This document shows positions 4,605 through 20,930 of a stretch of DNA of 64,000 nt, in pieces (position 1 is the stretch's first letter; each line of letters starts with the position of its first letter). Under the pieces are notes generated by a model that saw only the letters and a list, made by a program, of their open reading frames with translations, did not search any database and was not told the DNA's origin. A program made the translations under genes and the position numbers. Source of the DNA: a virus. Lineage: Duplodnaviria > Caudoviricetes. The stretch is taken from positions 32,001 to 96,000 of IMG/VR virus record IMGVR_UViG_3300034095_001474; one strand, written 5' to 3'.

Positions 4605-4618
4605 AAAAACCGCTGCAA

Positions 4619-4648: not shown

Positions 4649-4708
4649 CCAATCAAACAAACAAACAAACGAACAATTTGTATTTTAAATGTTTTATAAT
4701 ATTTTATT

Positions 4709-4921: not shown

Positions 4922-4966
4922 ATCTTTTAGTATTTGTTTTAACAAAGGTAAGTAATTTATTTCAAT

Positions 4967-5170: not shown

Positions 5171-5185
5171 CTTTTCGAATTTAGG

Positions 5186-5473
5186 TTATTGAGCACATAG
5201 GCTCCACGCTTCTAGTTTGTTGATATTTCTTCCATTCAAATTTAATTCTTTGCAAATAAACTTCGCTAACTTTCTGTTGCCAATAGTTCCTTGGTCAATT
5301 ACGTTTGTACCAATTTGTTCTACAATATGGTACGTGTCCATTCCCAACACTCTACTGCAAAACTTTACATCTTGTCCTAGATAAAACTCTTTAGTAGTTT
5401 TTGGTGTTGATACTACTAGTGTCCAATTATGGTCAAATCCGTAGTTGCTGCTAATTTTAATTTCTGCTTGCAT
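5186..5473 (-). CDS. hypothetical protein
   Basis: ORF; start trimmed to ATG after promoter. Confidence 0.7.
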   Translation of the reverse strand: MQAEIKISSNYGFDHNWTLVVSTPKTTKEFYLGQDVKFCSRVLGMDTYHIVEQIGTNVIDQGTIGNRKLAKFICKELNLNGRNINKLEAWSLCAQ

Positions 5474-5556
5474 ATCGTTCTGTTTTAGTTTGTTTAACAA
5501 AGGTAAGTAAAATAATCCAATCTACCAAATATAAACTGGATTATTTTTATTTTTTT

Positions 5557-5823
5557 TTAAATTAATCCATTAACATTGTCAAAGATTGTATTACCTTTGT
5601 CGTTGATAACTTCAATAGTTGCATTGTGGTCATTTTCTTCAATACTCATTTGTTGATTAACATCAGTAAGAATACCCTCGTGAAAACAATCATCTCCAAA
5701 CATTTCAATCAAGTCATCAGCATTGGTGATTTCTTCGTTTTGAATCGCTTTGATTACTTCTTGTTCCAATTCTTGTGGTATAGTAATTCGTTCCCACGCT
5801 GTAATTTTAAAATCTATTTGCAT
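5557..5823 (-). CDS. hypothetical protein
   Basis: ORF, own promoter. Confidence 0.75.
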   Translation of the reverse strand: MQIDFKITAWERITIPQELEQEVIKAIQNEEITNADDLIEMFGDDCFHEGILTDVNQQMSIEENDHNATIEVINDKGNTIFDNVNGLI

Positions 5824-5906
5824 AATTTCTAGTATTTATTTGTTTATGTAAAGATAAGTAAAATAATTCAATCTACCAAATATAAATTGAATTATTTTTA
5901 ATTTAT

Positions 5907-6155
5907 TTATAGGTGTGTCATTTCGCCACAACCCAAACATTCCATATAAGGTTTACCACCTTGTGAAACTGCTACTTGTTCATCTGCCAGCAACATCCAA
6001 TGATTACCACCACACTCACCACATTTTGCGTCTTGACTTCCCATACGTTCTGTCATTGTCAATTGGTTCGCACCTTTAAAGTGTGGGTACACGTGGTCTA
6101 ACACATTTCCTTTCACCTCAACTAATACTGCTTGAAAAAATTTTGGTTTGCTCAT
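5907..6155 (-). CDS. hypothetical zinc-ribbon protein
   Basis: CGECGG...CLGCG. Confidence 0.7.
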   Translation of the reverse strand: MSKPKFFQAVLVEVKGNVLDHVYPHFKGANQLTMTERMGSQDAKCGECGGNHWMLLADEQVAVSQGGKPYMECLGCGEMTHL

Positions 6156-6199
6156 AAGTTCTATGTTTTATTTGTTATAACAAAGATAAGTAAAATATT

Positions 6200-6439
6200 T
6201 CAATTATAAAAATATTTTGTGGTATTTTTTGTTAAAATTTTACACAATTCTTCATAGTCATTATTTCGCTCTTCTTCCGTAGCATAAGAGTAACTTGTAT
6301 CTTCCACATCAATAAGATAAGGAAAATCTAAATTAAAATCCTCTTCTTTTGATATAGCCATTTTAGTTATATCATTCTCAATTGATTCTTGATTCCATTT
6401 GATTTTATCAAGGTCAAAGTTTAAATCTCCGTTTGTCAT
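6200..6439 (-). CDS. hypothetical protein
   Basis: ORF, own promoter. Confidence 0.7.
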   Translation of the reverse strand: MTNGDLNFDLDKIKWNQESIENDITKMAISKEEDFNLDFPYLIDVEDTSYSYATEEERNNDYEELCKILTKNTTKYFYN

Positions 6440-6518
6440 AAGTTCTATGTTTTATTTGTTATATCAAAGATAGTAAATAATAATGACACTACCAAATGAT
6501 AGTGTCATTATTTTTAAA

Positions 6519-7361
6519 TTATTTTTCTACTTTCTCTAATTCTTTTTGTATTACAACAACCATTTCATAATTCTCATCAGCCATTGCTTTTTCTTTGAAT
6601 CTCTCCAATACAAGTTTGTGCCAATCGCAATCCTCAAATGGTTCAACTTTATTGTCATACGCAATATCAATCATATTGATAACAAACTCATTTATTTCAT
6701 CATCGTACAAATCATTGAATACATCATCAAAATCATACTCATCAGCACCACCATAATGAATTTCCATTGCCAACTCCAATGCTTCTCGACTACCACCTTC
6801 GGGTATATTTTCTTCAATTTCTTCACCATTTATCAAAGTGAATGTACCTACATTGTGTCCAAAGTCTTCATCAGCAAATTGTATTTCAAATTTTGCTTCG
6901 GGATATTTTTCAGATAGTTTTGTGAATAGATTGAATGGTGTACTCCACGCAGTATTAAAACTTACATACTCACTATCATCACTCCAATACACTTCACTTG
7001 CATTCCATTTTGTACCCCAATTTTCATTCTGCCACCCATACCAATCGCTATGTCCAAATCTTTGTCTATATTCATCAGCCAACTCTTGCGTTAACCCTCT
7101 TGTTACCCCAAACTTTTTTTCACCCTCTGTCAATTCATCTTTAGCAATTCTTTCTTCTTGCTTGTCAAATTCTTCTTGACTAATAATTCTTGTAGGACTT
7201 GTTGTTCCTTGTAACTCTGTTGGTATAGGTGCAATTTGATTAAAATCAAAATCTCTATCTTCACCATTGCTATATGGTGTACCTTTCACTTCTTCTCTAA
7301 TTTTTGCTAACAATGTTTCATCAGCGAAAATACTTACTTTGTTTGCTACCCAGTTTGGCAT
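6519..7361 (-). CDS. DUF1281/YubB ferredoxin-like domain protein
   Basis: MPNWV.N, WYGWQNENWGTKWN, F.TAWSTP, FADEDFG motifs. Confidence 0.7.
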   Translation of the reverse strand: MPNWVANKVSIFADETLLAKIREEVKGTPYSNGEDRDFDFNQIAPIPTELQGTTSPTRIISQEEFDKQEERIAKDELTEGEKKFGVTRGLTQELADEYRQRFGHSDWYGWQNENWGTKWNASEVYWSDDSEYVSFNTAWSTPFNLFTKLSEKYPEAKFEIQFADEDFGHNVGTFTLINGEEIEENIPEGGSREALELAMEIHYGGADEYDFDDVFNDLYDDEINEFVINMIDIAYDNKVEPFEDCDWHKLVLERFKEKAMADENYEMVVVIQKELEKVEK

Positions 7362-7435
7362 AATTTCTAAGTTTTAGTTTGTTTAACAAAGATAAGCATA
7401 ATCTTTTGATTATGCAAATCTTTTTGTAATTATTT

Positions 7436-7813
7436 TTAGTTTATTTTATATAAACCAAAATCAACACTCGCAATAGTAGTTATAAACTTATTATCAACTA
7501 TCTCACCATTCAACAACCAATTAGGTTGTACCCTTGGATTGTATTTAAATCTGTCGCAAATCTTGTCAAATTGTGTAAACGTATGGTTAATAATCGTTAT
7601 GTCTTCACATAGCACCCACGCACATATAACTTTCTCACCACCATTGAATATCTTTTTAGCAACTCCTTTGTGGTTTTTCAACTGACAACTTTTCATTATC
7701 AATTGTACATCACTTGGTCTATGATATTCAACGTGTCCGTTGGGATATACGATTTTCCATTTCATAAAGTTATTACCTCTTCCTAAATTGAACCTCACTT
7801 TTATCTTTCTCAT
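7436..7813 (-). CDS. hypothetical protein
   Basis: ORF; start at MRKIKV. Confidence 0.75.
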   Translation of the reverse strand: MRKIKVRFNLGRGNNFMKWKIVYPNGHVEYHRPSDVQLIMKSCQLKNHKGVAKKIFNGGEKVICAWVLCEDITIINHTFTQFDKICDRFKYNPRVQPNWLLNGEIVDNKFITTIASVDFGLYKIN

Positions 7814-7947
7814 AATATCTATGTTTGTTTGTCTATACAAAGATAAGCATAATATTCCGTTCTACCAAATAAAATAGCAAAATAAATAAAAAAAAAATAA
7901 TTGCAAATAAATTAGGAATATCGAAATAAGTTTCTTATCTTTGTTAT

Positions 7948-8019
7948 GTAGATGATTGATATCGATACGGGTTCACCGCAAGGTGCATAGGCTAGACTCC
8001 AACACGTCTATACTTTTTT
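7948..8019 (+). ncRNA. unannotated small RNA family, copy 2
   Basis: plus-strand promoter; ACGGGTT-CACC-GCAA-GGTG hairpin; AGACTCCAAC; T6. Confidence 0.7.
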
Positions 8020-8028
8020 ATATAAAAC

Positions 8029-8050
8029 AAAAAAAAGGGTTTCCCCTTTT
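8029..8050. terminator. bidirectional intrinsic terminator
   Basis: AAAAGGG-TTTC-CCCTTTT between convergent sRNA and ORF. Confidence 0.6.
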
Positions 8051-8054
8051 CTCC

Positions 8055-8381
8055 CTATCCTAATTTTCTATAAGATATTGGATATCCCGTATCACCCCAT
8101 TTTATGTTTCCATAGGCAAATTCGTTTATGTCTTGGTCTTCAAAGATACTCAAATAATATTGATATGCTATTTCAAGACTTTCTTTTTTTGTCGTCCTTG
8201 GTGGATAAAAACCAAATAGATTTTCTTTTGGTAAACCACAATAAACAATATAGATTTTGTTGCTTCTGCTACCATATTGGTGAGCATCTGCATATTGTTT
8301 AAACTTGTTGAACGATATTGGTTTCCTTTGTACTGCTAAACCAATCAATTCCATTTTCTGCATTAATTCTATTGTTGTCAT
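8055..8381 (-). CDS. hypothetical protein
   Basis: ORF; start at MTTIEL. Confidence 0.75.
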   Translation of the reverse strand: MTTIELMQKMELIGLAVQRKPISFNKFKQYADAHQYGSRSNKIYIVYCGLPKENLFGFYPPRTTKKESLEIAYQYYLSIFEDQDINEFAYGNIKWGDTGYPISYRKLG

Positions 8382-8454
8382 AAGTTCTGTTTGTTTTAAC
8401 AAAGATAATAAATATATTCCATACTACCAAATAATATGGAATATATTTTTAAAA

Positions 8455-8667
8455 TTAATTTACATCATAATCACCAACAATTTCCAATTGTTCATCAGTT
8501 AAAACATCATCTGCAATCATTTCAACATAATACTTTGTATAAGGTATTTCATTTTCAAATTCCTCAACTTGTTCTTTGAAACTTTCTTTGGTGTTAGCAA
8601 CTATACCTCTACCAATGTTCTCGTTGCTATTTTTATCAAAAGCAATAATTTGTACATATACATTCAT
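8455..8667 (-). CDS. hypothetical protein
   Basis: ORF, own promoter. Confidence 0.7.
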   Translation of the reverse strand: MNVYVQIIAFDKNSNENIGRGIVANTKESFKEQVEEFENEIPYTKYYVEMIADDVLTDEQLEIVGDYDVN

Positions 8668-8743
8668 AACTTCTATTGTTTAGTGTGAAACAAAGATAAG
8701 CATAATCTTTCGATTATGCAAATCTTTTTGTATTTATTTTTAA

Positions 8744-8992
8744 TTATTTTTCAATTACAAAGTAACCATACTTAAACGGTTGATTTCCATAATCAACTTC
8801 ACCCATATCAACAAATTCCTCTCCGTCCTCTGTTTCGTGTACGGATACAACTTGATATTCTTCCGTATCAAATTCTTTTACCCTATCAATTTCTTCGGGA
8901 TGCAAAAATAGGAAATCCCCATACTCTACACTATCTTCTTCTGCTACTACCAATCCACCACCATATTGTGCGAAAAATTCTGTCTTTGTCAT
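8744..8992 (-). CDS. hypothetical acidic protein
   Basis: ORF, own promoter. Confidence 0.7.
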   Translation of the reverse strand: MTKTEFFAQYGGGLVVAEEDSVEYGDFLFLHPEEIDRVKEFDTEEYQVVSVHETEDGEEFVDMGEVDYGNQPFKYGYFVIEK

Positions 8993-9069
8993 AATCTTTA
9001 TATTTAATTTGTTTGTGAAACAAAGATAAGCATAATCTTTTGATTATGCAAATCTTTTTACAATTATTT

Positions 9070-9318
9070 TCAATAATTTATTAAAACAATAATATTACAC
9101 AAATCATTCATATAGCGTTCTACATTTTGATAGTGTATTTCCGTTTCATTTATTGCTTCTATTTCAGCATATAAATCACTTGGTAAGTCGTCAGCATCTA
9201 AAAAGTGTTTACCCTCCTTAAACACGCTAATTTCACGTTCAAATGTTCCACGTGGGTTTATTTGACTATAAACGTAATCTTTGATTAGTTTTTTCTGTTT
9301 GCTTGTTAACTTTCTCAT
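9070..9318 (-). CDS. hypothetical protein
   Basis: ORF; start at MRKLTS. Confidence 0.7.
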   Translation of the reverse strand: MRKLTSKQKKLIKDYVYSQINPRGTFEREISVFKEGKHFLDADDLPSDLYAEIEAINETEIHYQNVERYMNDLCNIIVLINY

Positions 9319-9396
9319 AGTATTTGTTTTTAATTGTGTATACAAATATAAATAAAAAAATCCATACTACCAAATGTAATATGGATTATTTTTAAA

Positions 9397-9864
9397 TTAT
9401 TTTATAGATTGTGAACTACAATTATATAACAAGTTTTCTACAATCAAATCCCACGTTGCTGTTGGGTCTTGCTCTACCTCATTAGGATAATATTTCAATA
9501 CTTCGTTGATTTCTGCAATAGTTGGATTCAATTTTAAATCAATTGCAACTTGTACCACGTCCTCAATGCTTGGTAGTATAAAAAATTCACTACTTGATAT
9601 AGGTTCGTCAAACTCCATATTTTCAATACAACCCTCATACCATAAGTCTGGACAATCGCATAATTCCATTTTAGTATTACAACCAAAACATTCTATACTA
9701 TTATCATCATCTTTAAATGATATAAATTCAATATCACTAATTGATTTCATTTCGTGTAATAAAATTGTACCACAATTTCCACACGTTACAATGTTGATAT
9801 TAGATTTTCCTCTAATGTCGTCCATTAGGTCTAATTGTTTCTGTGCTAATTCTCTTGTTGTCAT
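9397..9864 (-). CDS. hypothetical zinc-finger protein
   Basis: CGNCG...CFGC...CDC. Confidence 0.75.
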   Translation of the reverse strand: MTTRELAQKQLDLMDDIRGKSNINIVTCGNCGTILLHEMKSISDIEFISFKDDDNSIECFGCNTKMELCDCPDLWYEGCIENMEFDEPISSSEFFILPSIEDVVQVAIDLKLNPTIAEINEVLKYYPNEVEQDPTATWDLIVENLLYNCSSQSIK

Positions 9865-9947
9865 AATGTTTGTTTTTGATTACATTACAAAGATAAACAA
9901 AATAATTCAATCTACCAAATGTAAATTGAATTATTTTTAAATTATTT

Positions 9948-10382
9948 TTAATTTCTTCTTCTCCTTTCAAAAAAACCTTGGTCGGGGTCACCTAAACTAC
10001 AAGTTTCTAAATCTTCATACGTACCTTTGAATGATACCGATACCAATTTCAAAGGATATTTAAGTTTTAGTATGTCTTCATCATAACAACCAATATCAAT
10101 TCCTTTACCTCTATTGCTATCAGTATGTTCATCAATTTCTTTCATAAGAGGAAATTCACCATTGTATTTTACATCTGCTTTGTTCCAAAATGCTAAAATT
10201 TCGTGCATATCGTATTTAGGTTCACCATTTTCGTTTGTACCTAAATAACCATAATCTTGGTAGTAATCTTTGATAAACCCACCACCAAATTCTTTTGGTA
10301 TTAAAAATTTAAAAGGTCTATCATAAGCAACATTTTCAGTGCTTGTTAATTTGTCTGCTTTGTTCCAACTAAAACTTCCCAT
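9948..10382 (-). CDS. hypothetical protein
   Basis: 144-aa ORF, own promoter. Confidence 0.8.
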   Translation of the reverse strand: MGSFSWNKADKLTSTENVAYDRPFKFLIPKEFGGGFIKDYYQDYGYLGTNENGEPKYDMHEILAFWNKADVKYNGEFPLMKEIDEHTDSNRGKGIDIGCYDEDILKLKYPLKLVSVSFKGTYEDLETCSLGDPDQGFFERRRRN

Positions 10383-10471
10383 AATCTTTATATTTAATTT
10401 GTTTGTTTAACAAAGATAAGCATAATCTTTTGATTATGCAAATCTTTTTTGATTTATTTTTAAATTATTTT

Positions 10472-10702
10472 TTACAAATGTCCACCGTCATTATTGGTGG
10501 GGTCTTGATACTCATAGATAGTATCATCATCAAACAAAGTAGCCTCGGATAATTCGTCCTCCAACAAATCATTTATTACATCATCGTTTGTTAAAAATGT
10601 TTGTAATTCCTCATCAACAAGGTTCTCATCAACTTCAACTTCAATAGTTGCTTGTTTTGAGTAATGTCTTTCGATTGTAACCGATACGATTTTTGTTCCC
10701 AT
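10472..10702 (-). CDS. hypothetical protein
   Basis: ORF, own promoter. Confidence 0.7.
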   Translation of the reverse strand: MGTKIVSVTIERHYSKQATIEVEVDENLVDEELQTFLTNDDVINDLLEDELSEATLFDDDTIYEYQDPTNNDGGHL

Positions 10703-10746
10703 AATTTCTAGTTTTTATTTGTTTATGTAAAGATAAGTATAATATT

Positions 10747-10956
10747 TCAATCCTCCAAATAAATTTTAACTTTATTTGTTTTTTTTAATGTAAATTTATA
10801 CTTGGATAATGTTAAACCTTGATACATCATTAATCTTTTTACTCGCACCATTGCTTCGTCCCTATCTTTGCAATTCTCAATTAGTGTACTATCAATAAAA
10901 CTCTTTCCTTGGTAGATAGTATTTTTGTCATATAGACATAATTCGTAATTTTTCAT
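10747..10956 (-). CDS. hypothetical protein
   Basis: ORF, own promoter. Confidence 0.7.
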   Translation of the reverse strand: MKNYELCLYDKNTIYQGKSFIDSTLIENCKDRDEAMVRVKRLMMYQGLTLSKYKFTLKKTNKVKIYLED

Positions 10957-11040
10957 AAGTTCTATTTATTTGTCTATAACAAAGATAAGTAAAATAAACC
11001 ATACTACCAAATATAATATGGTTTATTTTTAAATTATTTT

Positions 11041-11565
11041 TTAACCTTGAAAATATTTTTTCAATACCAACTGCCTATGCATCTGTTCGTCCATTCCAAC
11101 TTGTTCCAATATATACTGCATCGTTTCTCCATCAACATCAATAACTTTCAACTTTGCAATAATATCTTTTACAAATTCGTGTGTCTGTGGTGTTTTACAT
11201 AAATCTGTTGGTGGTTCTTCTTCTTCTTCTTTGGGTTCTTCAAACAAGTCATACCAATTATTATCAATACATTCAGTATCTTTTAAATCCAATGCAATAT
11301 CAACATCGTGAACACTTCTCTCTAATGTTTCAAATTCTCCATAATTAATAAATTCTTCTAATTTACCCTCATCTTGAAATGAATTTGCTAACTTCAATAT
11401 AAGTACCTCATTGTCATTGTTACTGCGAATAGCACATTCCATACGTTTTTCAACTTCTGTAATCTTATCATCCAAAGATTTCAATGCAACCCCAACTTCA
11501 TCATCTTTTTGATATAAGTCGTAACGATTCATTAATTCTACCAAATTGTTAAATTCCTTTCTCAT
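11041..11565 (-). CDS. hypothetical protein
   Basis: ORF; start at MRKEFN. Confidence 0.75.
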   Translation of the reverse strand: MRKEFNNLVELMNRYDLYQKDDEVGVALKSLDDKITEVEKRMECAIRSNNDNEVLILKLANSFQDEGKLEEFINYGEFETLERSVHDVDIALDLKDTECIDNNWYDLFEEPKEEEEEPPTDLCKTPQTHEFVKDIIAKLKVIDVDGETMQYILEQVGMDEQMHRQLVLKKYFQG

Positions 11566-11648
11566 AATGTTTGTTTTAAATTGTTTTAACAAAGATAAGT
11601 ATAATGTTTTAATCTACCAAATTTTTAACCAACTTTTTTCAATTATTT

Positions 11649-11879
11649 TTAATCGTTGATATGTTCCCAACCTTCCAATTGTTCCAATTCCATATTAATA
11701 GGTCTTAAACCAAATGGTTCTGCTTGTAAATAATAATCAAAAATGTAACCCAATGGTTCAATCTCACTCAATATTCTATCTAACTCATAATAACTATTAT
11801 CAGCATCCTCATCAAAGGTTTCTAATATTGCTTGTACTTCACTTGGTATCAACTCTGGCGTTTCAAATAAATCTTTCAT
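11649..11879 (-). CDS. hypothetical protein
   Basis: ORF; start at MKDLFE. Confidence 0.75.
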   Translation of the reverse strand: MKDLFETPELIPSEVQAILETFDEDADNSYYELDRILSEIEPLGYIFDYYLQAEPFGLRPINMELEQLEGWEHIND

Positions 11880-12011
11880 AATGTTTGTTTTAAATTGTTT
11901 TAACAAAGATAAGTATAATATTCCAATCCACCAAATTTTTAATGAAAATAAATAATAAATTATTTTACATAAAAATTAGGATATGTCATTTATTATTCTT
12001 ACCTTTGTTTT

Positions 12012-12087
12012 GTTGGTGGTAGTAACCGAAACGGGTCGAGGGAAATCTTTGAGAGAGTAGACTCCAACCTACCTTATATTTTTTTTT
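12012..12087 (+). ncRNA. unannotated small RNA family, copy 3
   Basis: plus-strand TACCTTTG promoter; ACGGGTC, GAAA-capped hairpin, GAGAGAGTAGACTCCAACCTAC, T9. Confidence 0.7.
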
Positions 12088-12150
12088 ACCATATAGCAAA
12101 AAATTTGCAAAGGTACGAAATTAAATCGACCCTTGCAAATAAAGTTATGA

Positions 12151-12180
12151 ACAAAGGGACTGTTGATAAGTCCCCTTGTA
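12151..12180 (-). terminator. putative terminator downstream of DUF932 gene
   Basis: GGGACT-N7-AGTCCC stem. Confidence 0.45.
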
Positions 12181-12186
12181 ACTTTG

Positions 12187-13074
12187 TTAGTAATTCAATG
12201 CAAATTCTAAACTTGCTTGGTTCATATTGTAACCCGTTCCTTGTAACAAAGTTTCAATTTTACCATTGTCACGTTTTGGTGCTGACAATTCGTGTGTAGT
12301 GTAATATGTAATCCCACTATGTAAACCCCACAAAGTATCACCTTTGCTATTCATTTCACGTTCAATTGCGTTATACAAAGCATCCATTTTGTTTATGCTA
12401 CGTGTAGACTTATCTGCTAAATCATTTACACTAGTATAAACCTTGTCAAACCCAATAATGTGTTTAACCATTTTGTGAGCCAAATCACGTGAAATTTTTG
12501 TACTTGCAAATTGATTGTAAATTTCAATCTGTCTTAAACTTTCTGACAATGCAGTTTCAATCAAAAATGGAATTTCTTTTATTCTACGTTCCAAACTTGC
12601 AGTATGTCTAAATTTAGATTGTCCACTTTTATAGAACTTGAAAAATTGATTAGAACAACTCATAGTCAAATCACCAATACCAACAGACAATCCCGTACTT
12701 CCGTCATTGCTATCAATGATTGTAATGTACTTTTTGATAGTGTCATTACCTACCTTGCCGTCACCATTGATAGCCAATTGTAAAAATACTCTACGACCAC
12801 CATTCAATGCACCACCTTTGGTAACTTGAACATCATTTCCAAATGGTTCAATACCTCTCAATACCAAATCAACAACTTCCTCATTTTGGGAAACTGTGTA
12901 CCCTTCTTTTACAGTATTAATCACTTCATTTGTGCTTGAATTAATCAAACCAAAATACTCACTTGGTACATAGATACCATTAGAATTTAAAGCCATTAAA
13001 GGTGCTTTCTCGATTGTAAAATCTAAACCATTAGATTTTAAAATTTCTTGTAACTTTGTGTTTTGCATACTCAT
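12187..13074 (-). CDS. DUF932 (phage/plasmid-like) domain protein
   Basis: Y.VSQNEE, GGALNGGRRVF, DSNDGSTG, CSNQF, RHT, TLWGL.SG.T motifs. Confidence 0.8.
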   Translation of the reverse strand: MSMQNTKLQEILKSNGLDFTIEKAPLMALNSNGIYVPSEYFGLINSSTNEVINTVKEGYTVSQNEEVVDLVLRGIEPFGNDVQVTKGGALNGGRRVFLQLAINGDGKVGNDTIKKYITIIDSNDGSTGLSVGIGDLTMSCSNQFFKFYKSGQSKFRHTASLERRIKEIPFLIETALSESLRQIEIYNQFASTKISRDLAHKMVKHIIGFDKVYTSVNDLADKSTRSINKMDALYNAIEREMNSKGDTLWGLHSGITYYTTHELSAPKRDNGKIETLLQGTGYNMNQASLEFALNY

Positions 13075-13242
13075 AATATATATGTTTTTTTGTTCCCTAC
13101 AAAGATACATATTCTTTTTTAATCTGCAATGAAAAAAATCATTTATTTTCATTCAAGTTATTAACAATTTTATTTTTACAATTGTTAATAACTTTGACCT
13201 AAAAAATTTGGTGCATTGAAATAAAATGCTTATCTTTGTAGT

Positions 13243-13313
13243 GTAGGTACGAGAGTGATACGGGTCGCTGACAAAGTGAGAGAGTAGACTCCAACCTACC
13301 TTATATTTTTTTT
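13243..13313 (+). ncRNA. unannotated small RNA family, copy 4
   Basis: plus-strand TTTG-N20-TATCTTTG promoter; same conserved core; T8. Confidence 0.7.
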
Positions 13314-13382
13314 ATATAAAAAAAAAAGAAAATAAAATTTCCTACCAAATTAATGGTAGGAAATAAAGTTATTAACAAGTTA

Positions 13383-13742
13383 TTAACATTCTGCTTCAAA
13401 ACTGCATTCACCATTTTCGATGATACAATCTCTAATTTGTTTACCCAATCCCAAATCGGCATACTCTCTCAATTCGTCTTGTGTAATATTAGCATCTGCT
13501 AACATTGTGTCATTGTAACCATTGTTAGTTTCAAAAAAATCATCGATGATTTTTACCTTGTCACCTAAACTTTCCTCAATACGTGCAATTTCTTGTTCCA
13601 CACCCTCAAGGTCTTCATCACCAAAGTAATAGTTCAATGTTTCGGGTTGAGTACCTTGCACCCCAAATCTATCAGCACAATCACTGCTTTGTAGTGCAAA
13701 CCAAAATTTTCCTTCAATATCACCACTAAAATAACGTCCCAT
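13383..13742 (-). CDS. hypothetical protein
   Basis: 119-aa ORF, own promoter. Confidence 0.8.
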   Translation of the reverse strand: MGRYFSGDIEGKFWFALQSSDCADRFGVQGTQPETLNYYFGDEDLEGVEQEIARIEESLGDKVKIIDDFFETNNGYNDTMLADANITQDELREYADLGLGKQIRDCIIENGECSFEAEC

Positions 13743-13851
13743 AATTTTTAAATTTTAAATTGTTTGTATTAATTAACTTTAACAAAGATAAGTATAATAT
13801 TCTAATCTACCAAATTTTTCTCCAGGTTTTTTTAATTTATTTTTTTAGTAA

Positions 13852-13891
13852 TGTTTCACGTGAAACATTTTGTATTGTTCCACGTGAAACA
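13852..13891. promoter_or_regulatory. two tandem parS sites
   Basis: TGTTTCACGTGAAACA (13852-13867) and TGTTCCACGTGAAACA (13876-13891) match the bacterial ParB parS consensus. Confidence 0.85.
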
Positions 13892-13898
13892 TTTTATA

Positions 13899-14615
13899 TT
13901 AGTGTAGTATAATTTCTATACTTTTATCTGTTTTGGTTCCTAAAGTACCACTACATAAACCACATTTAGAACAAGTTGCTTTGTACCCACTTTCTTTTGA
14001 AGCGGGACAACTAACAAAATCTAATTTTTTATCAGTAGCAACAAAACTACGATAACCTTGTAATTTCGCAATTTTTTCTTCTTCTATAGTGTGAGTACTT
14101 GACATAAAATATTCACCTAAATTTTCTTTGTTCCATTGGTGGGTGTAGCCAGTCCAATTGTCGCAAACATTCACCATTGATTTAATCATTTCTATGGGGT
14201 GTAAACTAGGTTCACCATACGAGCCAAAACGTACATAAGTATCTTTTGACATTTTGATTAAATCAATTAACATTGATTTATCAAAGTTAGGTATATTTTC
14301 TATACTACCAAACTTTTTTGCTATAGAACGTAATGATGATGTAAAACCACAATATTGATTAAATTTGTGAGTATAACACTTTCCAAACGAATTGAAAGGA
14401 CAATCCAAACAATTTGTATCAGCAACACTAAAAAAGTTCGCCATACCTATTGATAAACCACTTTCAAGGCTATCTAAAACCAATTGGTATTGTTTTTCAC
14501 TATAGGTGTACGTTTGTACAATTTTACGTTTTTTGTTCCCCTCAATTTTATCATTTGAAGTTGTTCCCAATGTAACCACGTGTAGGGCATTTCTGTGTCT
14601 AAATACTACTTTCAT
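13899..14615 (-). CDS. Cys-rich phage protein (Gp88-like)
   Basis: CLDCPF..CY, VRFGSYGEP, WTGYTHQW, CPAS..TCSKCGLC. Confidence 0.55.
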   Translation of the reverse strand: MKVVFRHRNALHVVTLGTTSNDKIEGNKKRKIVQTYTYSEKQYQLVLDSLESGLSIGMANFFSVADTNCLDCPFNSFGKCYTHKFNQYCGFTSSLRSIAKKFGSIENIPNFDKSMLIDLIKMSKDTYVRFGSYGEPSLHPIEMIKSMVNVCDNWTGYTHQWNKENLGEYFMSSTHTIEEEKIAKLQGYRSFVATDKKLDFVSCPASKESGYKATCSKCGLCSGTLGTKTDKSIEIILH

Positions 14616-14833
14616 AATTTGCTTGTTTTAAATTGTTTTGACAAAGATAAGTATAATGTTTTAATCTACCAAATTTTTTTGCAATTATTTTTAAATTATT
14701 TTTCATTGCTTAAATTCGATATGCAAATATAGTAATATTATTTTAATATACAACTATTATATAAGAAAAAAAATAAATAAAAATAATTGCAAAAAAATTA
14801 GGAATAACGAAATAAGTTTCTTATCTTTGTTAT

Positions 14834-14896
14834 GTAGATGCAAACAGCGATACGGGTCGGATAAAAAAAATCTGAGAGAGTAGACTCCAACCTACG
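14834..14896 (+). ncRNA. unannotated small RNA family, copy 5
   Basis: plus-strand promoter; ACGGGTC-GGA..TCTGA hairpin; GAGAGAGTAGACTCCAACCTAC; no T-run. Confidence 0.65.
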
Positions 14897-14906
14897 ATAA
14901 ATTCTC

Positions 14907-15066
14907 CTTATTTAGAATGAATATAAATAACGAAAAAATTTGGTATACTCGATTTAATTCACTACCTTTGTATTCTAATTAATTTTAATCTTATTTAGAA
15001 TGAATATAAATAACAAAAAAAGTGAAAATAAATTTGGTAGTTCGGAATTAATTCACTACCTTTGTA
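14907..15066 (+). repeat. tandem imperfect duplication carrying two plus-strand promoters
   Basis: 25-bp CTTATTTAGAATGAATATAAATAAC at 14907 and 14990, each followed by TTTGGTA..TTAATTCACTACCTTTGTA. Confidence 0.75.
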
Positions 15067-15219
15067 ATATGAATATTTTTAATCTTTAAATAGTATGCCT
15101 ATGTAATATGCCCTTTATGACATATCAAATTTTTACGCCCTTTCCTATGGAAGTGGGGGAAGTACTTATACCCGTACTTTTATAGTATGGGGCAAACTTG
15201 CGTTCATAAAATTATGGAA

Positions 15220-15235
15220 TGTTCCACGTGAAACA
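15220..15235. promoter_or_regulatory. parS site
   Basis: TGTTCCACGTGAAACA. Confidence 0.85.
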
Positions 15236-15512
15236 TTGTGTCCAAAAATTTGGGCTGAAAAATGCTCGTGTGTTTGCGTGAAGCATAAAGTATATGTATG
15301 TATTCTTATGGGATAAATCTATGGTATTTCTATATACCATATCTGTATAATTATGCCCTATCACGCCCTATTATTACTATTTACCATTTTATGGTACTAA
15401 TTATTTACACTTTATCCCACTTTTTACCACAAAACCCGTTTTTTAGCCCAAAAACGCAAAATAATAAAACTTTGCTAATATGGGTACAAAAAGGAAGTGG
15501 TTTGTAACTGCC

Positions 15513-15532
15513 ATGTACACAATTGTGTACAT
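15513..15532. repeat. 20-bp perfect palindrome (identical copy at 15978; variant at 34357)
   Basis: ATGTACACAATTGTGTACAT. Confidence 0.7.
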
Positions 15533-15652
15533 TTCGGAAAGGGTGTTTTATGCAATAATGTTCATTAGTTATCTGGTGTTCATCTGGTGGTATATTGTGG
15601 TAACACACTGCGTGTGTTTACTAGATTTGTTATATTCTATATTATAGTTTCT

Positions 15653-15904
15653 CTATTGTATGGTATTGTCATTGTCTTGTTTATTATCGAAGTATTTGTG
15701 TCCATTTTCTCTTAGGAGGATATGTCCAAGTGCTGCTGCGTATTCGTCTTTTGTTATAAAGTCGGATATGATTACATTGTTATCATTAATTCTTGTTTTG
15801 GTATATGTACCATTGTGTAGTTCTGCGTACATGGTAGGATATTTCATATTTCCAAACATTACTTTAAATTTTCTTTTTATATAGTTGTTTATGTTATGGC
15901 TCAT
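15653..15904 (-). CDS. hypothetical protein
   Basis: ORF coupled to upstream gene. Confidence 0.65.
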   Translation of the reverse strand: MSHNINNYIKRKFKVMFGNMKYPTMYAELHNGTYTKTRINDNNVIISDFITKDEYAAALGHILLRENGHKYFDNKQDNDNTIQ

Positions 15905-16275
15905 ATAAGATTATAATTTATTAGTATTTGTTTTTTTATAAATTCCTTTATGTATTGTATTGCATTGTTGTTGTTGTATGTACACAATTGTGTACATGTA
16001 TCGTTGTCTATTGTATATGTTTTAGCTTTATAATAGTTAATTTCTTCTTGTGTTAATTTACGTAAGATATTTTCTTGTTTATGTAAAGATAAGTATAGTT
16101 CATATTTATCTTTTACATCATAGAAATATTTTACTTCACAATCAATATTGTTCTTATATATTATTCTATTGTTATTATCATAGTGAATTTCTTCTATAAG
16201 GATATTATCTACATAATCTTTTGTTATGTGTATATTGTATGTATCTTCGTATAGGATTGTTTCTTGTTTAATCAT
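15901..16275 (-). CDS. hypothetical protein with YD-like repeat
   Basis: HYDNNNRIIY motif; resembles 23615-23965. Confidence 0.65.
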   Translation of the reverse strand: MIKQETILYEDTYNIHITKDYVDNILIEEIHYDNNNRIIYKNNIDCEVKYFYDVKDKYELYLSLHKQENILRKLTQEEINYYKAKTYTIDNDTCTQLCTYNNNNAIQYIKEFIKKQILINYNLI

Positions 16276-16324
16276 TATGTTTACGTTGAATGGGGTTTAT
16301 GTAGTTGTGTTTGTATAATGTGGG

Positions 16325-16561
16325 TTATCTGGGTGTTATTGTATATTCACCACACATTATTATTTCATCATTATTTTCATCATATGCTTTAATACAATTC
16401 TCGTTTATCTTTTTATATGATATTACACTATAAGAATTTCCGTTAGAGTTAATGATTGTATATTTACAATTTTCATATTGTTTTGTGTGTATGTATACAA
16501 CTGTAAAACACACTGCGAATATGCTTATGTATATAAGCATAAATGTTAAAAATCTTTTCAT
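16325..16561 (-). CDS. membrane-anchored hypothetical protein
   Basis: N-terminal TM. Confidence 0.65.
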   Translation of the reverse strand: MKRFLTFMLIYISIFAVCFTVVYIHTKQYENCKYTIINSNGNSYSVISYKKINENCIKAYDENNDEIIMCGEYTITPR

Positions 16562-16582
16562 CTTGTTTTATTTAAAGGTTAA

Positions 16583-16780
16583 TTATTCTTCTTCAATATC
16601 TTCAATGTTTACAATTATTGTTTTATCAATTGGATAGCAAGCCACGAGTGTTTTTTCATCAAAGAAAGAATAGAATCCACTGCTTGTGCTATTGTTTGTT
16701 GTTGTATGGAAATTTTTAGCATATATGCTAACTTCATGGACATATGTATATGTCAATACCATTAAATTATATTTTTTCAT
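16583..16780 (-). CDS. hypothetical protein
   Basis: ORF in operon. Confidence 0.65.
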   Translation of the reverse strand: MKKYNLMVLTYTYVHEVSIYAKNFHTTTNNSTSSGFYSFFDEKTLVACYPIDKTIIVNIEDIEEE

Positions 16781-16781
16781 A

Positions 16782-17543
16782 CTATTTCTTTTTATGGAAT
16801 TGATTAAACCATTGTTCTAGGTCTACTTTAACTAATGCTGATTGTAATGCTTCTGAAATTATAAACTTAACTTCTTCTTCACTATATAATTTGTTGTCTT
16901 GTCCTTGTTGCCATTCAGCACCTTTGATAAATGAATGTCTATCTGATGGAATACAATTTATATAATGTATTTCAGCTGCTGCTTGTAATTCCACTTGTTT
17001 CTCTATTTTAGGGTCACCATGTTTGTCTAACCAATTGGTAATCATTTTTCCTTCTTCTTCTTCTTCTTCTGGAATGTTTTTATTAGCCAAAGGCATTACA
17101 ACCATGCTCATATCACGTTTGAACCTTTCTTCTAGGTTATCTAATGGTTTAGGTTCTGACTCATCACACATTCTTTCTTTACATTCTGTATAACCACGTT
17201 TAAAAGCAATTCTTTCCATTAATTCCCATTTTTCATCTGGATAAAAATCTATCGCTAATTCTTCTAATGTTTCTTGTTTATGTTCTTCTTGTTTTTTATC
17301 AGCAATTTCCTTTTTAAGGTCCATTATAAGTTTACTACCATAGCTAATTAATATAAGGTCATTAGAAAAATAACTACTAACTCTTTCTTCTTCACCATAA
17401 GGTTTAAAATAGAGTTGACCATCTTCTTTTCTATATACTTTATGTATTCCACTGTCTTGAACGTCAACATAATAACCATTTTGTATAACTCTATCAATCT
17501 TATCACGACATATAACTTGTTTAGGTTCTTCTTCTGGTTTCAT
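16782..17543 (-). CDS. hypothetical mosaic protein
   Basis: 253-aa ORF with phage motifs AF..G..WQ and LYSEEEV. Confidence 0.75.
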   Translation of the reverse strand: MKPEEEPKQVICRDKIDRVIQNGYYVDVQDSGIHKVYRKEDGQLYFKPYGEEERVSSYFSNDLILISYGSKLIMDLKKEIADKKQEEHKQETLEELAIDFYPDEKWELMERIAFKRGYTECKERMCDESEPKPLDNLEERFKRDMSMVVMPLANKNIPEEEEEEGKMITNWLDKHGDPKIEKQVELQAAAEIHYINCIPSDRHSFIKGAEWQQGQDNKLYSEEEVKFIISEALQSALVKVDLEQWFNQFHKKK

Positions 17544-17552
17544 AATATTTAA

Positions 17553-17726
17553 TTATTTAAGTTTTGACTTCTTTTCTTTATAATATTCAACTATATTTTT
17601 AATCATCCAACCAATACAAATTAATGCAATTGGAAACCCAAGGATTAAAAAGAATGTAAAAAACTCATCAGATGGAGTTGCTTTATGATTGTTTAATCTT
17701 TCTAATAGTTCGCTAAATTCTTTCAT
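17553..17726 (-). CDS. small membrane protein
   Basis: hand-translated 57 aa, one TM. Confidence 0.6.
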   Translation of the reverse strand: MKEFSELLERLNNHKATPSDEFFTFFLILGFPIALICIGWMIKNIVEYYKEKKSKLK

Positions 17727-17772
17727 AATTTATTATAATGTAAATGTACAAATATTATTTTGATAAAACAAA

Positions 17773-17988
17773 TTATTTCATAATCATTTGTGAATTATGT
17801 TTTCTCACACAAGATTCAAGTGTTGCACAAACATATTCATCGGTTAGATGACCTTGGCTATTGTATATTCCCATACAATATCCGTCATGGACATAATTAG
17901 GAATAATCACCATTTTGTTCTCAGCACCTATTTCGTTATTTAACTTATTCAATAGGTGTTCTAGTTGTATATAGTCTTCTGGAGTCAT
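17773..17988 (-). CDS. hypothetical protein
   Basis: start at MTPEDY. Confidence 0.65.
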   Translation of the reverse strand: MTPEDYIQLEHLLNKLNNEIGAENKMVIIPNYVHDGYCMGIYNSQGHLTDEYVCATLESCVRKHNSQMIMK

Positions 17989-18167
17989 GGTAAAAAAGTT
18001 ATACAAAAAACAATACACGAAATAAAAACATAAAATGCTGACATCCCCAATGCGAGTGTCCAAAGTTTCATATCTTCATCAAAGATATTATAGTTACCAT
18101 AAAGGTTTTTAAATCTTCTGAATCCGAAGAATGTGTATAGTACACATATAAAAAATAATGTTATCAT
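17985..18167 (-). CDS. small membrane protein
   Basis: two TM segments. Confidence 0.6.
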   Translation of the reverse strand: MITLFFICVLYTFFGFRRFKNLYGNYNIFDEDMKLWTLALGMSAFYVFISCIVFCITFLP

Positions 18168-18394
18168 AGTTTTCCGTTTAATAATAATTGTTCAAATTCC
18201 CAAGGTGTATATTTCTCATGTAGTTCAATAAAAGTTTTAAACTTCATATTTCCATGCAGTGTATCTTTCACATCATCATATTCTGATAGTTCTTCTTCCA
18301 GATTATTTACTTGTGATTCCAAGTAATCTATTTCGCTATCTGAATCAGATGTATCATATTCACCACCCAATCGTTCAAGTGTTTCTTTTTTCAT
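18164..18394 (-). CDS. hypothetical protein
   Basis: coupled ORF. Confidence 0.65.
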   Translation of the reverse strand: MKKETLERLGGEYDTSDSDSEIDYLESQVNNLEEELSEYDDVKDTLHGNMKFKTFIELHEKYTPWEFEQLLLNGKL

Positions 18395-18623
18395 TTTTAT
18401 TTATTTTAAATTTGTTATTGTAATAATTTAAAGCTGTATCATGACTGCATTTACCATTTTTCCAAGTTTGTTTTGTAAACTCATCTTGTATAGTAAACTT
18501 AATAGCATTCATTAATTGCTGCTTTTCCATTTCTTTGGCTTTAGCAAATGCTAAACTTATTATTCCTTCTGACTTTTGGCTGCCATTATTCATAAATTCT
18601 TCTAACCACTCTACTGCTGTCAT
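18375..18623 (-). CDS. hypothetical protein (MTAVEWL family)
   Basis: common phage motif AKEMEKQQ. Confidence 0.7.
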   Translation of the reverse strand: MTAVEWLEEFMNNGSQKSEGIISLAFAKAKEMEKQQLMNAIKFTIQDEFTKQTWKNGKCSHDTALNYYNNKFKINKNEKRNT

Positions 18624-18624
18624 C

Positions 18625-18999
18625 TTATTTATTTTTAACTATTTCTATTAGTTTATCTATACATTTTGCTTCTAATTCTTCAACAGTTTTACAATTATCT
18701 AAACTTGCAAGTGAACTATATCTACCTAATTGATGTATGCTACCTTGATAGTCATACTCTCTCATTTCATCATAATAATCTGGTCTAAACCATAAATCAT
18801 ACTTATCTCTAAACCACTTAAAGACTTGCTGTTTGAGTGGTGCATAAATTTCAGATTCATTTATATTTTCGCACCATACATTACTCCAATTAATACTTAA
18901 TAATAATCTATTTGATGTATATTTAGCAAAACAAGCTTCATCAAACCCTAATTCTTTAAGAGCTAAGGCTTGTTCATATGTTGTAAATAATTCTTCCAT
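18625..18999 (-). CDS. hypothetical protein
   Basis: TYEQALALKELGFDE..APL.QQVFKWFR phage family. Confidence 0.75.
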   Translation of the reverse strand: MEELFTTYEQALALKELGFDEACFAKYTSNRLLLSINWSNVWCENINESEIYAPLKQQVFKWFRDKYDLWFRPDYYDEMREYDYQGSIHQLGRYSSLASLDNCKTVEELEAKCIDKLIEIVKNK

Positions 19000-19000
19000 A

Positions 19001-19576
19001 TTATAATTTATTTAGTATAATACAATCATTGTCATCTTTTAAAGGATAAACTGGAGTGCATATGATACATTGAGCCATTGTTAACTTATCACATCGACCA
19101 GCACTGCTATAACAATCTTTATCATAAAGCACCTCAACATCAATTTCTGATTTGATATGTAACCATTTCTCAAATAGTTGTTCTTCGTCCATAGTGAACA
19201 AACCTTGATGTTCACCATTTTTTGACCATACAGAGACTCTTTGAGCTGGAGTTAATTTATTCATCCAAGTAGCAAATTCAATCATGTCAGTGACTTTAAA
19301 CTTATATGCTTCAGCTACATGACATGCAGTAAAACCATCAATAAAAGATTGTTTCGCAACTTTATGGTTTGATAGTCCTTTACCTTGTGCGTATAGCCAT
19401 GCATATTCACTTCCCAATTCATTTATATCTGTAAAATCAAATATTTCATTGCAGTTATTTCTACAAAGTTTATGTTTCTTTGGTGATGCTTTTATTATTG
19501 ATTCATCAGTTGTTGCTATTAGATTTCTAGATGAATCTATCAGCATGTATTCGTTATTGTCTTTAAGTAGTTTCAT
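19001..19576 (-). CDS. hypothetical protein
   Basis: 191-aa ORF. Confidence 0.75.
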   Translation of the reverse strand: MKLLKDNNEYMLIDSSRNLIATTDESIIKASPKKHKLCRNNCNEIFDFTDINELGSEYAWLYAQGKGLSNHKVAKQSFIDGFTACHVAEAYKFKVTDMIEFATWMNKLTPAQRVSVWSKNGEHQGLFTMDEEQLFEKWLHIKSEIDVEVLYDKDCYSSAGRCDKLTMAQCIICTPVYPLKDDNDCIILNKL

Positions 19577-19577
19577 A

Positions 19578-19802
19578 TTATCTCCAGATATTTCTAATGG
19601 TTTCCATTATAGCCACTGTAATGACTACTATAATAACTAAACCAAATGTTATTGCACCAATTGGTGGTATAAGACATATTCGATAAAATGTTGTGTTATC
19701 AAAGATAGTTTCACTTAACATCTCTGTTAGTTCTTTAGTTGTAAAGATATTGACTATCGTTACCAACGATACTGCAAAAATTATTATTCCCATAGTTCCC
19801 AT
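19578..19802 (-). CDS. small membrane protein
   Basis: two TM segments, LIPP motif like 2522-2743. Confidence 0.65.
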   Translation of the reverse strand: MGTMGIIIFAVSLVTIVNIFTTKELTEMLSETIFDNTTFYRICLIPPIGAITFGLVIIVVITVAIMETIRNIWR

Positions 19803-19859
19803 AATTTATAATTGTTTTAACAAAGGTACATAATCTTTTTCGATATTCCTAATATAAAA

Positions 19860-20243
19860 CTATTTTTTATTAGGAATTTTTGCAACACCATGTGTAATGT
19901 TCAGAGTAATGATTTGTTTTGGTACACTTGTTGCTTGATTGATAACCAAATGTTGGAATCTCTCGTAAAATTTCACATCAGCAGCTTCAAACGTATGGAT
20001 ATAGTATCCATGTTCTTGCAATCTAATGATATCAACCAATGGAAACCACTGATAAAGTGTTTCAAGACTATCTGTTGCTGACAACCACCCAACAATTTCA
20101 TCATCAAAGTCCATTTCCAACTTGTTGTGTGTACAAAAATCAAATTCATTATGGATATATCCAGTGAAAAGTCCTTTATAGTCATACCATAAACCTTGTA
20201 GTGTATCTTTGTGACACACTCTATAAAATAATTTCTTCTCCAT
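19860..20243 (-). CDS. hypothetical protein
   Basis: start at MEKKLF. Confidence 0.75.
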   Translation of the reverse strand: MEKKLFYRVCHKDTLQGLWYDYKGLFTGYIHNEFDFCTHNKLEMDFDDEIVGWLSATDSLETLYQWFPLVDIIRLQEHGYYIHTFEAADVKFYERFQHLVINQATSVPKQIITLNITHGVAKIPNKK

Positions 20244-20248
20244 AGTTT

Positions 20249-20431
20249 TTAAGATTGCAAGATACATTCAACACCCAGAGGTTTTAATTTTTCTAGGATA
20301 ACATAGTTTTTTTCTTCTGCTTCCTTCATTTGACCATAACTATCGATGTATCTATAATAGACATCATACCCTCTAGCCAAGTCTTTAATTTCTTGGGTTA
20401 CTTCGAACCCTTCTTTCATTACAATTTCCAT
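20249..20431 (-). CDS. hypothetical protein
   Basis: ORF in operon. Confidence 0.6.
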   Translation of the reverse strand: MEIVMKEGFEVTQEIKDLARGYDVYYRYIDSYGQMKEAEEKNYVILEKLKPLGVECILQS

Positions 20432-20436
20432 AATTT

Positions 20437-20670
20437 CTATTTTCTTATTATTACTGTATCACCTACTTTCAACCCTTGATTTGTTTTGGTTATTGATTTA
20501 CCACAATCTGTATATATAATAAATTTCTTTTCAATATCGATTGATGATTGTTCAAGTTGTTCTATATTATGTATCACACATTTATGATATACATTGCCGA
20601 CATCATTTGATTTATTGTTACAAGATACAAGTAACACACAAACAAACATAATTTTCAAAAATCTTTCCAT
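20437..20670 (-). CDS. putative lipoprotein
   Basis: LLVSC lipobox. Confidence 0.65.
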   Translation of the reverse strand: MERFLKIMFVCVLLVSCNNKSNDVGNVYHKCVIHNIEQLEQSSIDIEKKFIIYTDCGKSITKTNQGLKVGDTVIIRK

Positions 20671-20671
20671 A

Positions 20672-20872
20672 TTATAATTTTTCTATTTTTACACTTATTG
20701 TTATTTTTACTTTTTCATCAATGTAATCTCTCAACATTCCGTCAACGAAATCTATTGGTGATGATAAACTAACAGAATTGTCATCTATCCTTGTCTCAAT
20801 AACAAAATTATCTTTTGCCTCATATACTCTACCAATATAATTATTTTCTTTAAAACTATTTACAATACCCAT
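20672..20872 (-). CDS. hypothetical protein
   Basis: ORF, promoter upstream. Confidence 0.65.
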   Translation of the reverse strand: MGIVNSFKENNYIGRVYEAKDNFVIETRIDDNSVSLSSPIDFVDGMLRDYIDEKVKITISVKIEKL

Positions 20873-20930
20873 TTTGTTTAAATTTACTTATCTTTAACAA
20901 AGGTACATAATCTTTTTCAATCCACCAAAT

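Follow-up and report, generated by a model that had tools for sequence, protein, structure and literature searches.

Host-type parS sites clustered at a non-coding hub in a lake-water jumbo phage genome

A non-coding hub in a jumbo phage genome

The DNA analysed here, hereafter the window, is a stretch of 64 kb that is about 90% coding and that carries every gene on the minus strand. Its genes encode an A1-like DNA transfer protein, a helicase, RNase II/R, IF3 and SmpB, together with proteins with Sir2, SET and Macro domains, sigma factors, and a NAPRTase with PRPP synthetase. The window is phage DNA, since it contains the A1-like DNA transfer protein and other phage-type families, has its genes on one strand and has relatives in IMG/VR, and the concern raised in the first-pass annotation, that the contig might be host-derived at this point, is thus largely dispelled. 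In particular, the source is a jumbo phage with a genome of at least 304 kb, as both IF3 and the 238-aa protein of the window are also encoded on a 304,260-bp ENA contig and as the IMG/VR relatives of the window span 128-345 kb. A search for integrase domains in four related records, which are partial or more distant relatives, gave none. The stretch is contained in lake-water metagenomes from about 15 studies, and a megablast search with 24 kb of the window against cultured phages gave no match. Homologues of IF3 are nearly all metagenome or phage proteins and, upon comparison with genome contigs, the phage sigma factor matched only two MAGs, one of Bacilli and one of Spirochaetes, with an identity of 31-33%.

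The nature of the host is suggested by two observations. On the coding strand, 42 copies of the Bacteroidota promoter motif TTTG-N17-21-TAnnTTTG were counted, as compared with 0.9 in shuffles, and the cultured phages with the closest A1-like protein have Maribacter and Flavobacterium as hosts. Thus, the host is probably a freshwater bacterium of the phylum Bacteroidota, whose members do not form endospores.

The locus of interest is organized around a large non-coding stretch, here called the hub (Table 1). Public gene calls are absent from the hub except for a 35-aa call at its edge, and no Rfam family was detected between 13000 and 17000. The hub contains divergent promoters, one parS site, iteron-like repeats and a second palindrome, and it is about 70% identical across several hundred bases to the corresponding region of the 206-kb relative G001. 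It also represents the upstream end of a block of small genes rich in promoters (window 1-14642). Indeed, the interval from 93 to 14642 holds 25 of the 42 promoter motifs and the one from 14643 to 20897 is devoid of them, so that the hub stands at the head of a promoter-dense, early-looking small-gene block.

Table 1. Features of the parS locus, with positions in the window (a dot marks features without strand)
Feature	Position	Strand	Description
DUF932 protein	12187..13152	-	321 aa; second gene downstream of parS1/parS2
119-aa protein gene	13383-13742	-	after the parS1/parS2 spacer
Bacteroidota-type promoter of gene 13383-13742	13783..13814	-	TTTG-N20-TATCTTTG
parS1	13852..13867	.	TGTTTCACGTGAAACA, perfect palindrome; 0 mismatches to TGTTNCACGTGAAACA
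parS2	13876..13891	.	TGTTCCACGTGAAACA; 0 mismatches to TGTTNCACGTGAAACA
Cysteine-rich 238-aa protein	13899..14615	-	phrog_2554; between parS2 and hub
Non-coding hub	14616..15652	.	sole large non-coding stretch in 64 kb
Bacteroidota-type promoter of 238-aa gene	14642..14673	-
Two Bacteroidota-type promoter motifs	14936..15064	+	3' ends 14970 and 15064
parS3	15220..15235	.	TGTTCCACGTGAAACA; 0 mismatches to TGTTNCACGTGAAACA; lineage-conserved copy
Conserved anchor block	15246..15262	+	AAATTTGGGCTGAAAAA; 10 bp past parS3
Iteron-like run	15380..15431	+	TTTACCAC-type words, about 10 bp apart; kept in relatives
Second palindrome	15513..15532	.	ATGTACACAATTGTGTACAT; exact repeat at 15978-15997

Repeated elements are a common trait of the locus. 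The promoter of the 119-aa protein gene falls within an 89-nt repeat whose second copy lies at 14615-14703, and repeat analysis also revealed in the hub an inverted copy of the promoter of the 238-aa gene. The two plus-strand promoter motifs belong to a 94-bp tandem duplication, face parS3 and are oriented opposite to all genes. Past parS3, GTGTTTTT and cATAAAG-like words come after the anchor block in most lineages, and this block may work as a promoter or as a protein-binding module. The iteron-like run, which lies 150-200 bp from parS3 and is conserved, is made of the words TTTACCAT, TTTACAC, TTATCCCAC and TTTACCAC. As for the second palindrome, variants of it are present in the relatives L031, L032, L034 and G001, and a phage regulator probably uses it as its operator; it is distinct from parS.

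Two further candidates were considered at the locus and rejected. A possible link had been considered between the DUF932 neighbour and YfjB/HerB of the plasmid leading region, which is a ParB-like and not a DUF932 protein. A genome end or terminal-repeat boundary had been considered at 15283-15286, where three assemblies stop, but Logan contigs from other lakes bridge this point unchanged.

Sequence and conservation of the parS sites

Each of the three sites is a 16-bp inverted repeat that matches the chromosomal parS consensus exactly, thus confirming them as canonical chromosomal-type parS sequences. The first-pass description of three consensus sites, all intergenic and within 1.4 kb, proved to be exact, and these are the sole copies in the 64-kb window, which contains no other match even when up to two mismatches are allowed. 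Such sites would be expected 0.18 times by chance at up to two mismatches in 64 kb, as estimated from shuffles, and 9.5e-5 times as exact matches given the base composition, as compared with the three observed. By taking into account the flanks, repeat analysis extends the sites to 20-bp palindromes of the form AATGTT[T/C]CACGTGAAACATT. parS1 and parS2, 24 bp apart from centre to centre, occupy the 156-bp spacer that separates the minus-strand genes 13899-14615 and 13383-13742. In particular, parS2 starts 8 bp past the stop codon of the former, and parS1 is placed upstream of the promoter of the latter, at about 38 bp from its -33 element. parS3 is located in the 1-kb non-coding stretch of the hub.

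Whether the sites are conserved in related phages, a point raised by the first-pass annotation, has a different answer for the different copies: parS3 is shared, parS1 and parS2 are specific to the phage of the window and its close kin. A homologue of parS3, inside the conserved block, is present in the relatives G001, G002 and G003 and in 10 metagenome lineages. Upon scanning whole records, parS was found only at the homologous hub, with one copy in G001, one in G002 and two, 38 bp apart, in G003, and it was absent from the complete 345-kb record G004, a more distant relative. The relatives spell the site either as TGTTCCACGTGAAACA or in the fully symmetric form TGTTCCACGTGGAACA. In contrast to parS3, parS1 and parS2 are missing from the homologous spacer of G001, and the two extra sites at 1.35 kb from parS3 are a trait of the window phage and of the 96%-identical scaffold L064, which also carries parS1. 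An exact-match search for the context of parS3 in IMG/VR gave no match. Contigs from four independent lake samples have zero substitutions in the three sites, and the same three sites were recovered in independent assemblies.

Homologous contexts were gathered by means of the anchor block together with the central CACGTG, which was held fixed, leaving the outer ten positions of the site free. The anchored search recovered the viral loci already known as well as 13 metagenome contigs from relatives, and yielded 14 distinct contexts. Among these, positions 1, 2, 4-11, 13, 15 and 16 of parS are invariant, position 12, which mirrors the N of the consensus, is A or G, and positions 3 and 14 are altered in one or two contexts. 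Majority identity ranges from 79 to 100% at the parS positions versus 29-57% at most flanking positions, and the spacing between the anchor block and parS3 varies from 10 to 30 bp. The lineages that keep the site have proteins that are 62-89% identical and flanks that are randomised. Since the ten outer positions are conserved even though the search pattern had left them free, the comparison indicates that selection acts on the 16-bp footprint of parS itself and tracks the known tolerance of ParB.

The lineage also displays gains, losses and variants of the site. A second site has been gained 38-57 bp away in G003, L059 and L066. On the other side, there is no parS in L031 and a half-site in L032, with the anchor block intact in L032 and present only in a diverged form in L031. 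In one sublineage (L056/L067) both half-sites are changed to give TGCTCCACGTGGAGCA, and L068 represents an intermediate with one half changed. Thus, the lineage provides a clean natural experiment, in which the same hub is found with one, two or three sites, with a variant in both halves, with a half-site or with none.

The proteins that would act on these sites appear not to be encoded nearby. The first-pass observation that the window contains no parA or parB gene was borne out by Pfam analysis, as none of the 138 ORFs of at least 55 aa belongs to the ParB_N, ParA or SMC families; in the second half of the window, every one of the 37 families detected is accounted for. Likewise, no ParB_N and no AAA_31/ParA domain was found in G001 (206 kb), G002 (128 kb), G003 (233 kb) and G004 (345 kb), which were searched in six frames alongside control genomes that were positive for both ParB_N and ParA, ParB_N being found, among others, in the Bacteroides control. 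The absence of ParB and ParA hence refers to the 64-kb window of a genome of at least 304 kb and to four related records, a scope within which host-type parS sites occur in a phage devoid of both proteins. No parA-parB operon flanks the sites, whose neighbours are the 238-aa phrog_2554 protein, the 119-aa protein and the DUF932 protein.

A similar situation is also present in other viruses. At least 120 IMG/VR contigs contain the symmetric form of parS, TGTTCCACGTGGAACA, as compared with 3 for a control palindrome, obtained by reversing it so that the composition is matched. Among 50 parS-bearing IMG/VR records, ParB_N is absent from 48, and 14 of the 15 records with a completeness of 90% or more are among these 48.

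Host ParB and the alternatives

Collectively, the canonical sequence of the sites, the lack of ParB and ParA in the DNA in view and the selection on the footprint make the recruitment of host ParB the best reading, and we consider it fairly probable that the three palindromes are working sites for the chromosomal ParB of the host, carried by a jumbo phage of Bacteroidota. The first-pass annotation had proposed that ParB and SMC of the host may be recruited: the ParB part is supported by the orphan canonical sites and by their conservation in 14 contexts, and SMC is retained as one of the possible downstream partners. From an alignment of about 1,800 extant ParB orthologues, the residues with which ParB recognizes parS are reported to be invariant (PMC7383237), and consensus parS clusters were reported near ori in 12 of 12 OMM12 genomes, that of Bacteroides caecimuris among them (PMC10197239).

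Once the phage DNA has been injected, dimers of host ParB would nucleate at the cluster formed by the conserved hub site and by the two sites 1.35 kb off. The dimers would then close as CTP clamps and slide to the adjoining DNA, and one ParB complex per phage genome would form at the head of the early region. Different downstream uses of this complex can be envisaged. The first, which is possible and somewhat short of an even chance, is the positioning or inheritance of phage DNA via host ParA and/or SMC in a delayed infection. In slow-growing lake hosts, such an infection would amount to a carrier state, as the non-sporulating counterpart of the spore entrapment of phi29. The second, control by ParB of the adjacent hub promoters, is rather unlikely, and the third, in which replicated phage DNA would sequester host ParB, is more doubtful still. 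The centromere-like role is favoured because several sites within 1.4 kb resemble a chromosomal nucleation zone; the main argument for a regulatory role is that parS3 and the conserved block are fixed neighbours.

Some observations run against the reading based on host ParB. The site is dispensable in some relatives (L031, L032 and G004). In addition, the change of both halves to TGCTCCACGTGGAGCA could point to a co-evolving binder encoded by the phage, and the constant position of parS3 beside a conserved module would fit a purely regulatory operator too.

Indeed, the most serious alternative is that the palindrome is the operator of a dimeric phage regulator unlike ParB, which would control the hub promoters and whose target would resemble parS by convergence or incidentally. 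All three sites adjoin promoters in a regulatory hub, the promoter-like conserved block is always found 10-30 bp from parS3, and many small proteins near the hub are without known family, as would suit such a regulator. In the same direction, the two half-sites have changed alike in L056/L067, with L068 as a one-half intermediate, as expected if a binder and its site co-evolve. However, a match to parS at 16 of 16 positions in about 10 lineages, with variation mainly where ParB is tolerant, would be a remarkable coincidence for an unrelated operator. Moreover, there are only one to three copies per 128 kb or more, whereas the other palindrome of the hub behaves like a typical phage operator, and the occurrence of the same orphan palindrome in at least 120 unrelated viral contigs is something that a lineage-specific regulator cannot account for. 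All in all, an operator of this kind appears unlikely.

The palindromes could also be envisaged as nucleic-acid structures, in the form of a hairpin or terminator in the RNA past the 238-aa gene, or of a cruciform belonging to an origin. parS1 and parS2 together can form an 18-bp hairpin just past the stop codon of gene 13899-14615 (-24.8 kcal/mol, z = -9.6), the T3C/A14G change in L056 preserves pairing, and iteron-like repeats lie near parS3. Nonetheless, mutual pairing is inevitable for any two copies of a palindrome, and parS3 alone is no more stable than shuffles (z = 0.23 and -1.6). A terminator scan flags none of the three sites; the GC-rich hairpin with U-tract of an intrinsic terminator is not seen at parS1-3, which have no U-tract on the coding strand and have A-rich tails. 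Furthermore, the asymmetric variants correspond to G-U wobbles on opposite strands, minus for the window type and plus for the L068 type, and this mismatches a single transcribed hairpin. The origin version, which the first-pass annotation had put forward by suggesting that the sites mark the replication origin, finds little support, with the conserved iteron-like repeats as the one trait in its favour: the GC-skew analysis recommended there shows no inflection, the hub has no DnaA boxes, and the gene for a B-family DNA polymerase is 113 kb away in G001. As the exact parS sequence would also be left unexplained, a structural role is very improbable.

Finally, the idea that the sites are a passive relic of recently captured host DNA, or that the contig is host-derived here, has nothing in its favour except that the 16-mer is identical to the consensus of the host, and is close to refuted by the phage-specific nature of the adjoining genes and hub, which are syntenic in IMG/VR jumbo-phage contigs, by a parS match that extends for 16-20 bp only, by the survival of the site with randomised flanks across lineages whose proteins are 62-89% identical, and by the recovery of the same three sites in independent assemblies.

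Relation to known centromere systems

In chromosomal ParABS systems, parS clusters near oriC load ParB-CTP clamps and SMC. The phage sites share with these systems the identical 16-bp sequence, the grouping of sites within about 1-2 kb and the tolerance at position 5 of the consensus. In contrast to them, the sites are located on a virus, with no adjacent parAB operon and little sign of an origin. A centromere-like site on a phage genome is also a feature of the plasmid prophages P1, with parABS, and N15, with sopABC, where it serves inheritance without integration. Unlike the phage described here, P1 and N15 encode their own ParA and ParB and rely on a private parS, whereas the site found here is of the host type and neither ParA nor ParB is present in the scanned parts of the lineage.

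The closest functional precedent is represented by the Bacillus phages phi29 and Nf, which also carry several host-type parS sites with no phage ParB, according to the account of Meijer et al. 2005 given in PMC2731898. As described in the same source, these phages are virulent and their genome is placed by the partition protein of the host (PMC2731898). In particular, evidence is reported there that segregation of the phi29 genome into the prespore relies on the use of its five parS sites by the host Spo0J (PMC2731898). The two cases differ in several respects. phi29, whose host forms spores, is a protein-primed podovirus of 19 kb, as opposed to a phage of at least 304 kb, and the sites described here cluster within 1.4 kb at a non-coding hub. 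Spore entrapment is a benefit shown for phi29, whereas the host here is probably a non-sporulating freshwater member of the Bacteroidota. Indeed, nothing points to a sporulating host, as the promoters are of the Bacteroidota type and relatives infect Flavobacteriia. In the lack of sporulation, the benefit must differ from that of phi29, if the mechanism is shared.

The principle is already known from phi29, the only phage for which use of host ParB has been shown so far. The present case is new in its host phylum and in the lack of sporulation, as well as in the jumbo size of the phage genome, in the non-coding hub at which the site is kept and in how widespread such sites appear to be. Our literature search gave no article on sites of this kind in phages that are jumbo or that infect Bacteroidota. 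The abundance of orphan sites in IMG/VR suggests that the phenomenon is far broader than a single textbook case. As a tentative generalisation, which we regard as possible and less than probable, orphan host centromeres may be a widespread and selected phage device, in which many unrelated phages, integrase-less jumbo phages of non-sporulating Bacteroidota among them, would retain from one to a few exact parS sites, and by which ParB-CTP clamps of the host, and through them ParA or SMC, would assemble on the incoming genome. If this is true, phage DNA would gain a chromosome-like positioning and inheritance in delayed infection, or the segregation machinery of the host would be redirected during takeover. 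In case host ParB does load on these sites, the chromosome segregation machinery would be exploited by phages of a phylum that is prominent in both aquatic and gut habitats. This would bear on the persistence of virulent phages in slow-growing natural hosts (carrier state/pseudolysogeny), on the location of phage DNA in the cell and on ParB/SMC as a general target of takeover.

A tandem arrangement comparable to that of parS1 and parS2 was also noticed in phi29-like podoviruses of Clostridium perfringens (phiCP7R, CPS2 and the CPQ series), which differ from the present phage in that phage family and host phylum are unrelated. The pair is not annotated as a feature in the phiCP7R record, and no description of it was found in the literature. 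As in the window, it is intergenic, and it consists of consensus or near-consensus parS sites 25 bp apart, versus 24 bp here.

Putative regulatory elements and repeats around the hub

Besides parS3, the predicted ParB-site copy that is kept across the lineage, the hub (the sole large non-coding stretch of the window) holds one copy of a second perfect palindrome, ATGTACACAATTGTGTACAT, while the other copy lies within the gene at 15901-16275. At the homologous position, the related record G001 and the related loci L031, L032 and L034 carry TGTACA-N-TGTACA variants, and the palindrome is probably an operator for a phage regulator. The run of TTTACCAC-type words is kept in every relative examined, and these words are DnaA box-like, yet they do not match DnaA boxes. 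Within the 89-nt repeat lies a promoter of the Bacteroidota type whose conserved context is extended; many genes of the window phage and its relatives are preceded by copies resembling this repeat, and a match to Elizabethkingia phage TCUEAP1 spans it. The portion of the hub that follows the parS-anchor block (a conserved block next to parS3) is hypervariable; where L034 has the AAGCTATTTTT repeat, L031 has a different tandem array.

The conserved block of about 70 nt that ends in AGAGTAGACTCCAACCTAC is kept in G001 and in a second related record, G002; L031 has two copies of it (1700-1760 and 2880-2940). The block represents a candidate small RNA whose transcription would run opposite to all genes; a search of Rfam returned no family matching the block.

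Features of the window and of L034 (window coordinates unless a locus is named)
Feature	Position	Strand	Remarks
89-nt repeat	13756-13844; 14615-14703		copies 82% identical
Promoter-like -7 box, then conserved ~70-nt block ending AGAGTAGACTCCAACCTAC	14822-14895	+
Iteron-like run of TTTACCAC-type words	15380-15431		spacing ~10 bp
Perfect 20-bp palindrome ATGTACACAATTGTGTACAT	15513-15532; 15978-15997		two copies, spacing 465 bp
11-bp tandem repeat AAGCTATTTTT	L034:3960-4030	minus	~5 copies; after parS-anchor block
RNase II/R	43791-45746		host-like translation/RNA-related gene
IF3	47991-48506		host-like translation/RNA-related gene

Contig ends near parS3

In each of three assemblies made independently, one a TARA scaffold and the others from two JGI samples, phage contigs stop at 15283-15286, about 50 bp past parS3, and one further contig of the window phage stops at 15977, adjoining the second palindrome. 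A genome end at 15283-15286 is less likely than strain variation or repeats, since contigs from other lakes run across 15286.

parS in other phages

The parS palindrome TGTTCCACGTGGAACA is found in at least 120 IMG/VR viral contigs, as against 3 for the reversed control, a composition-matched palindrome. No ParB_N domain was found in 48 of the 50 IMG/VR records with TGTTCCACGTGGAACA that were tested. Clostridium phage phiCP7R carries at 1504-1544 a tandem parS pair, 25 bp apart, one site being perfect and the other having one mismatch; the pair is intergenic, flanked by a hypothetical gene and a tail gene. Fourteen other C. perfringens podoviruses are grouped with phiCP7R for parS, and all of these phages are phi29-like and have a spore-former as host.

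Gene content of 27500-64000

SmpB also belongs to the host-like translation and RNA-related genes of this region. Sir2, SET, Macro and Smr domains are encoded here too, as are two or three sigma factors, and NAPRTase, PRPP synthetase and Nudix make up a set for NAD salvage.
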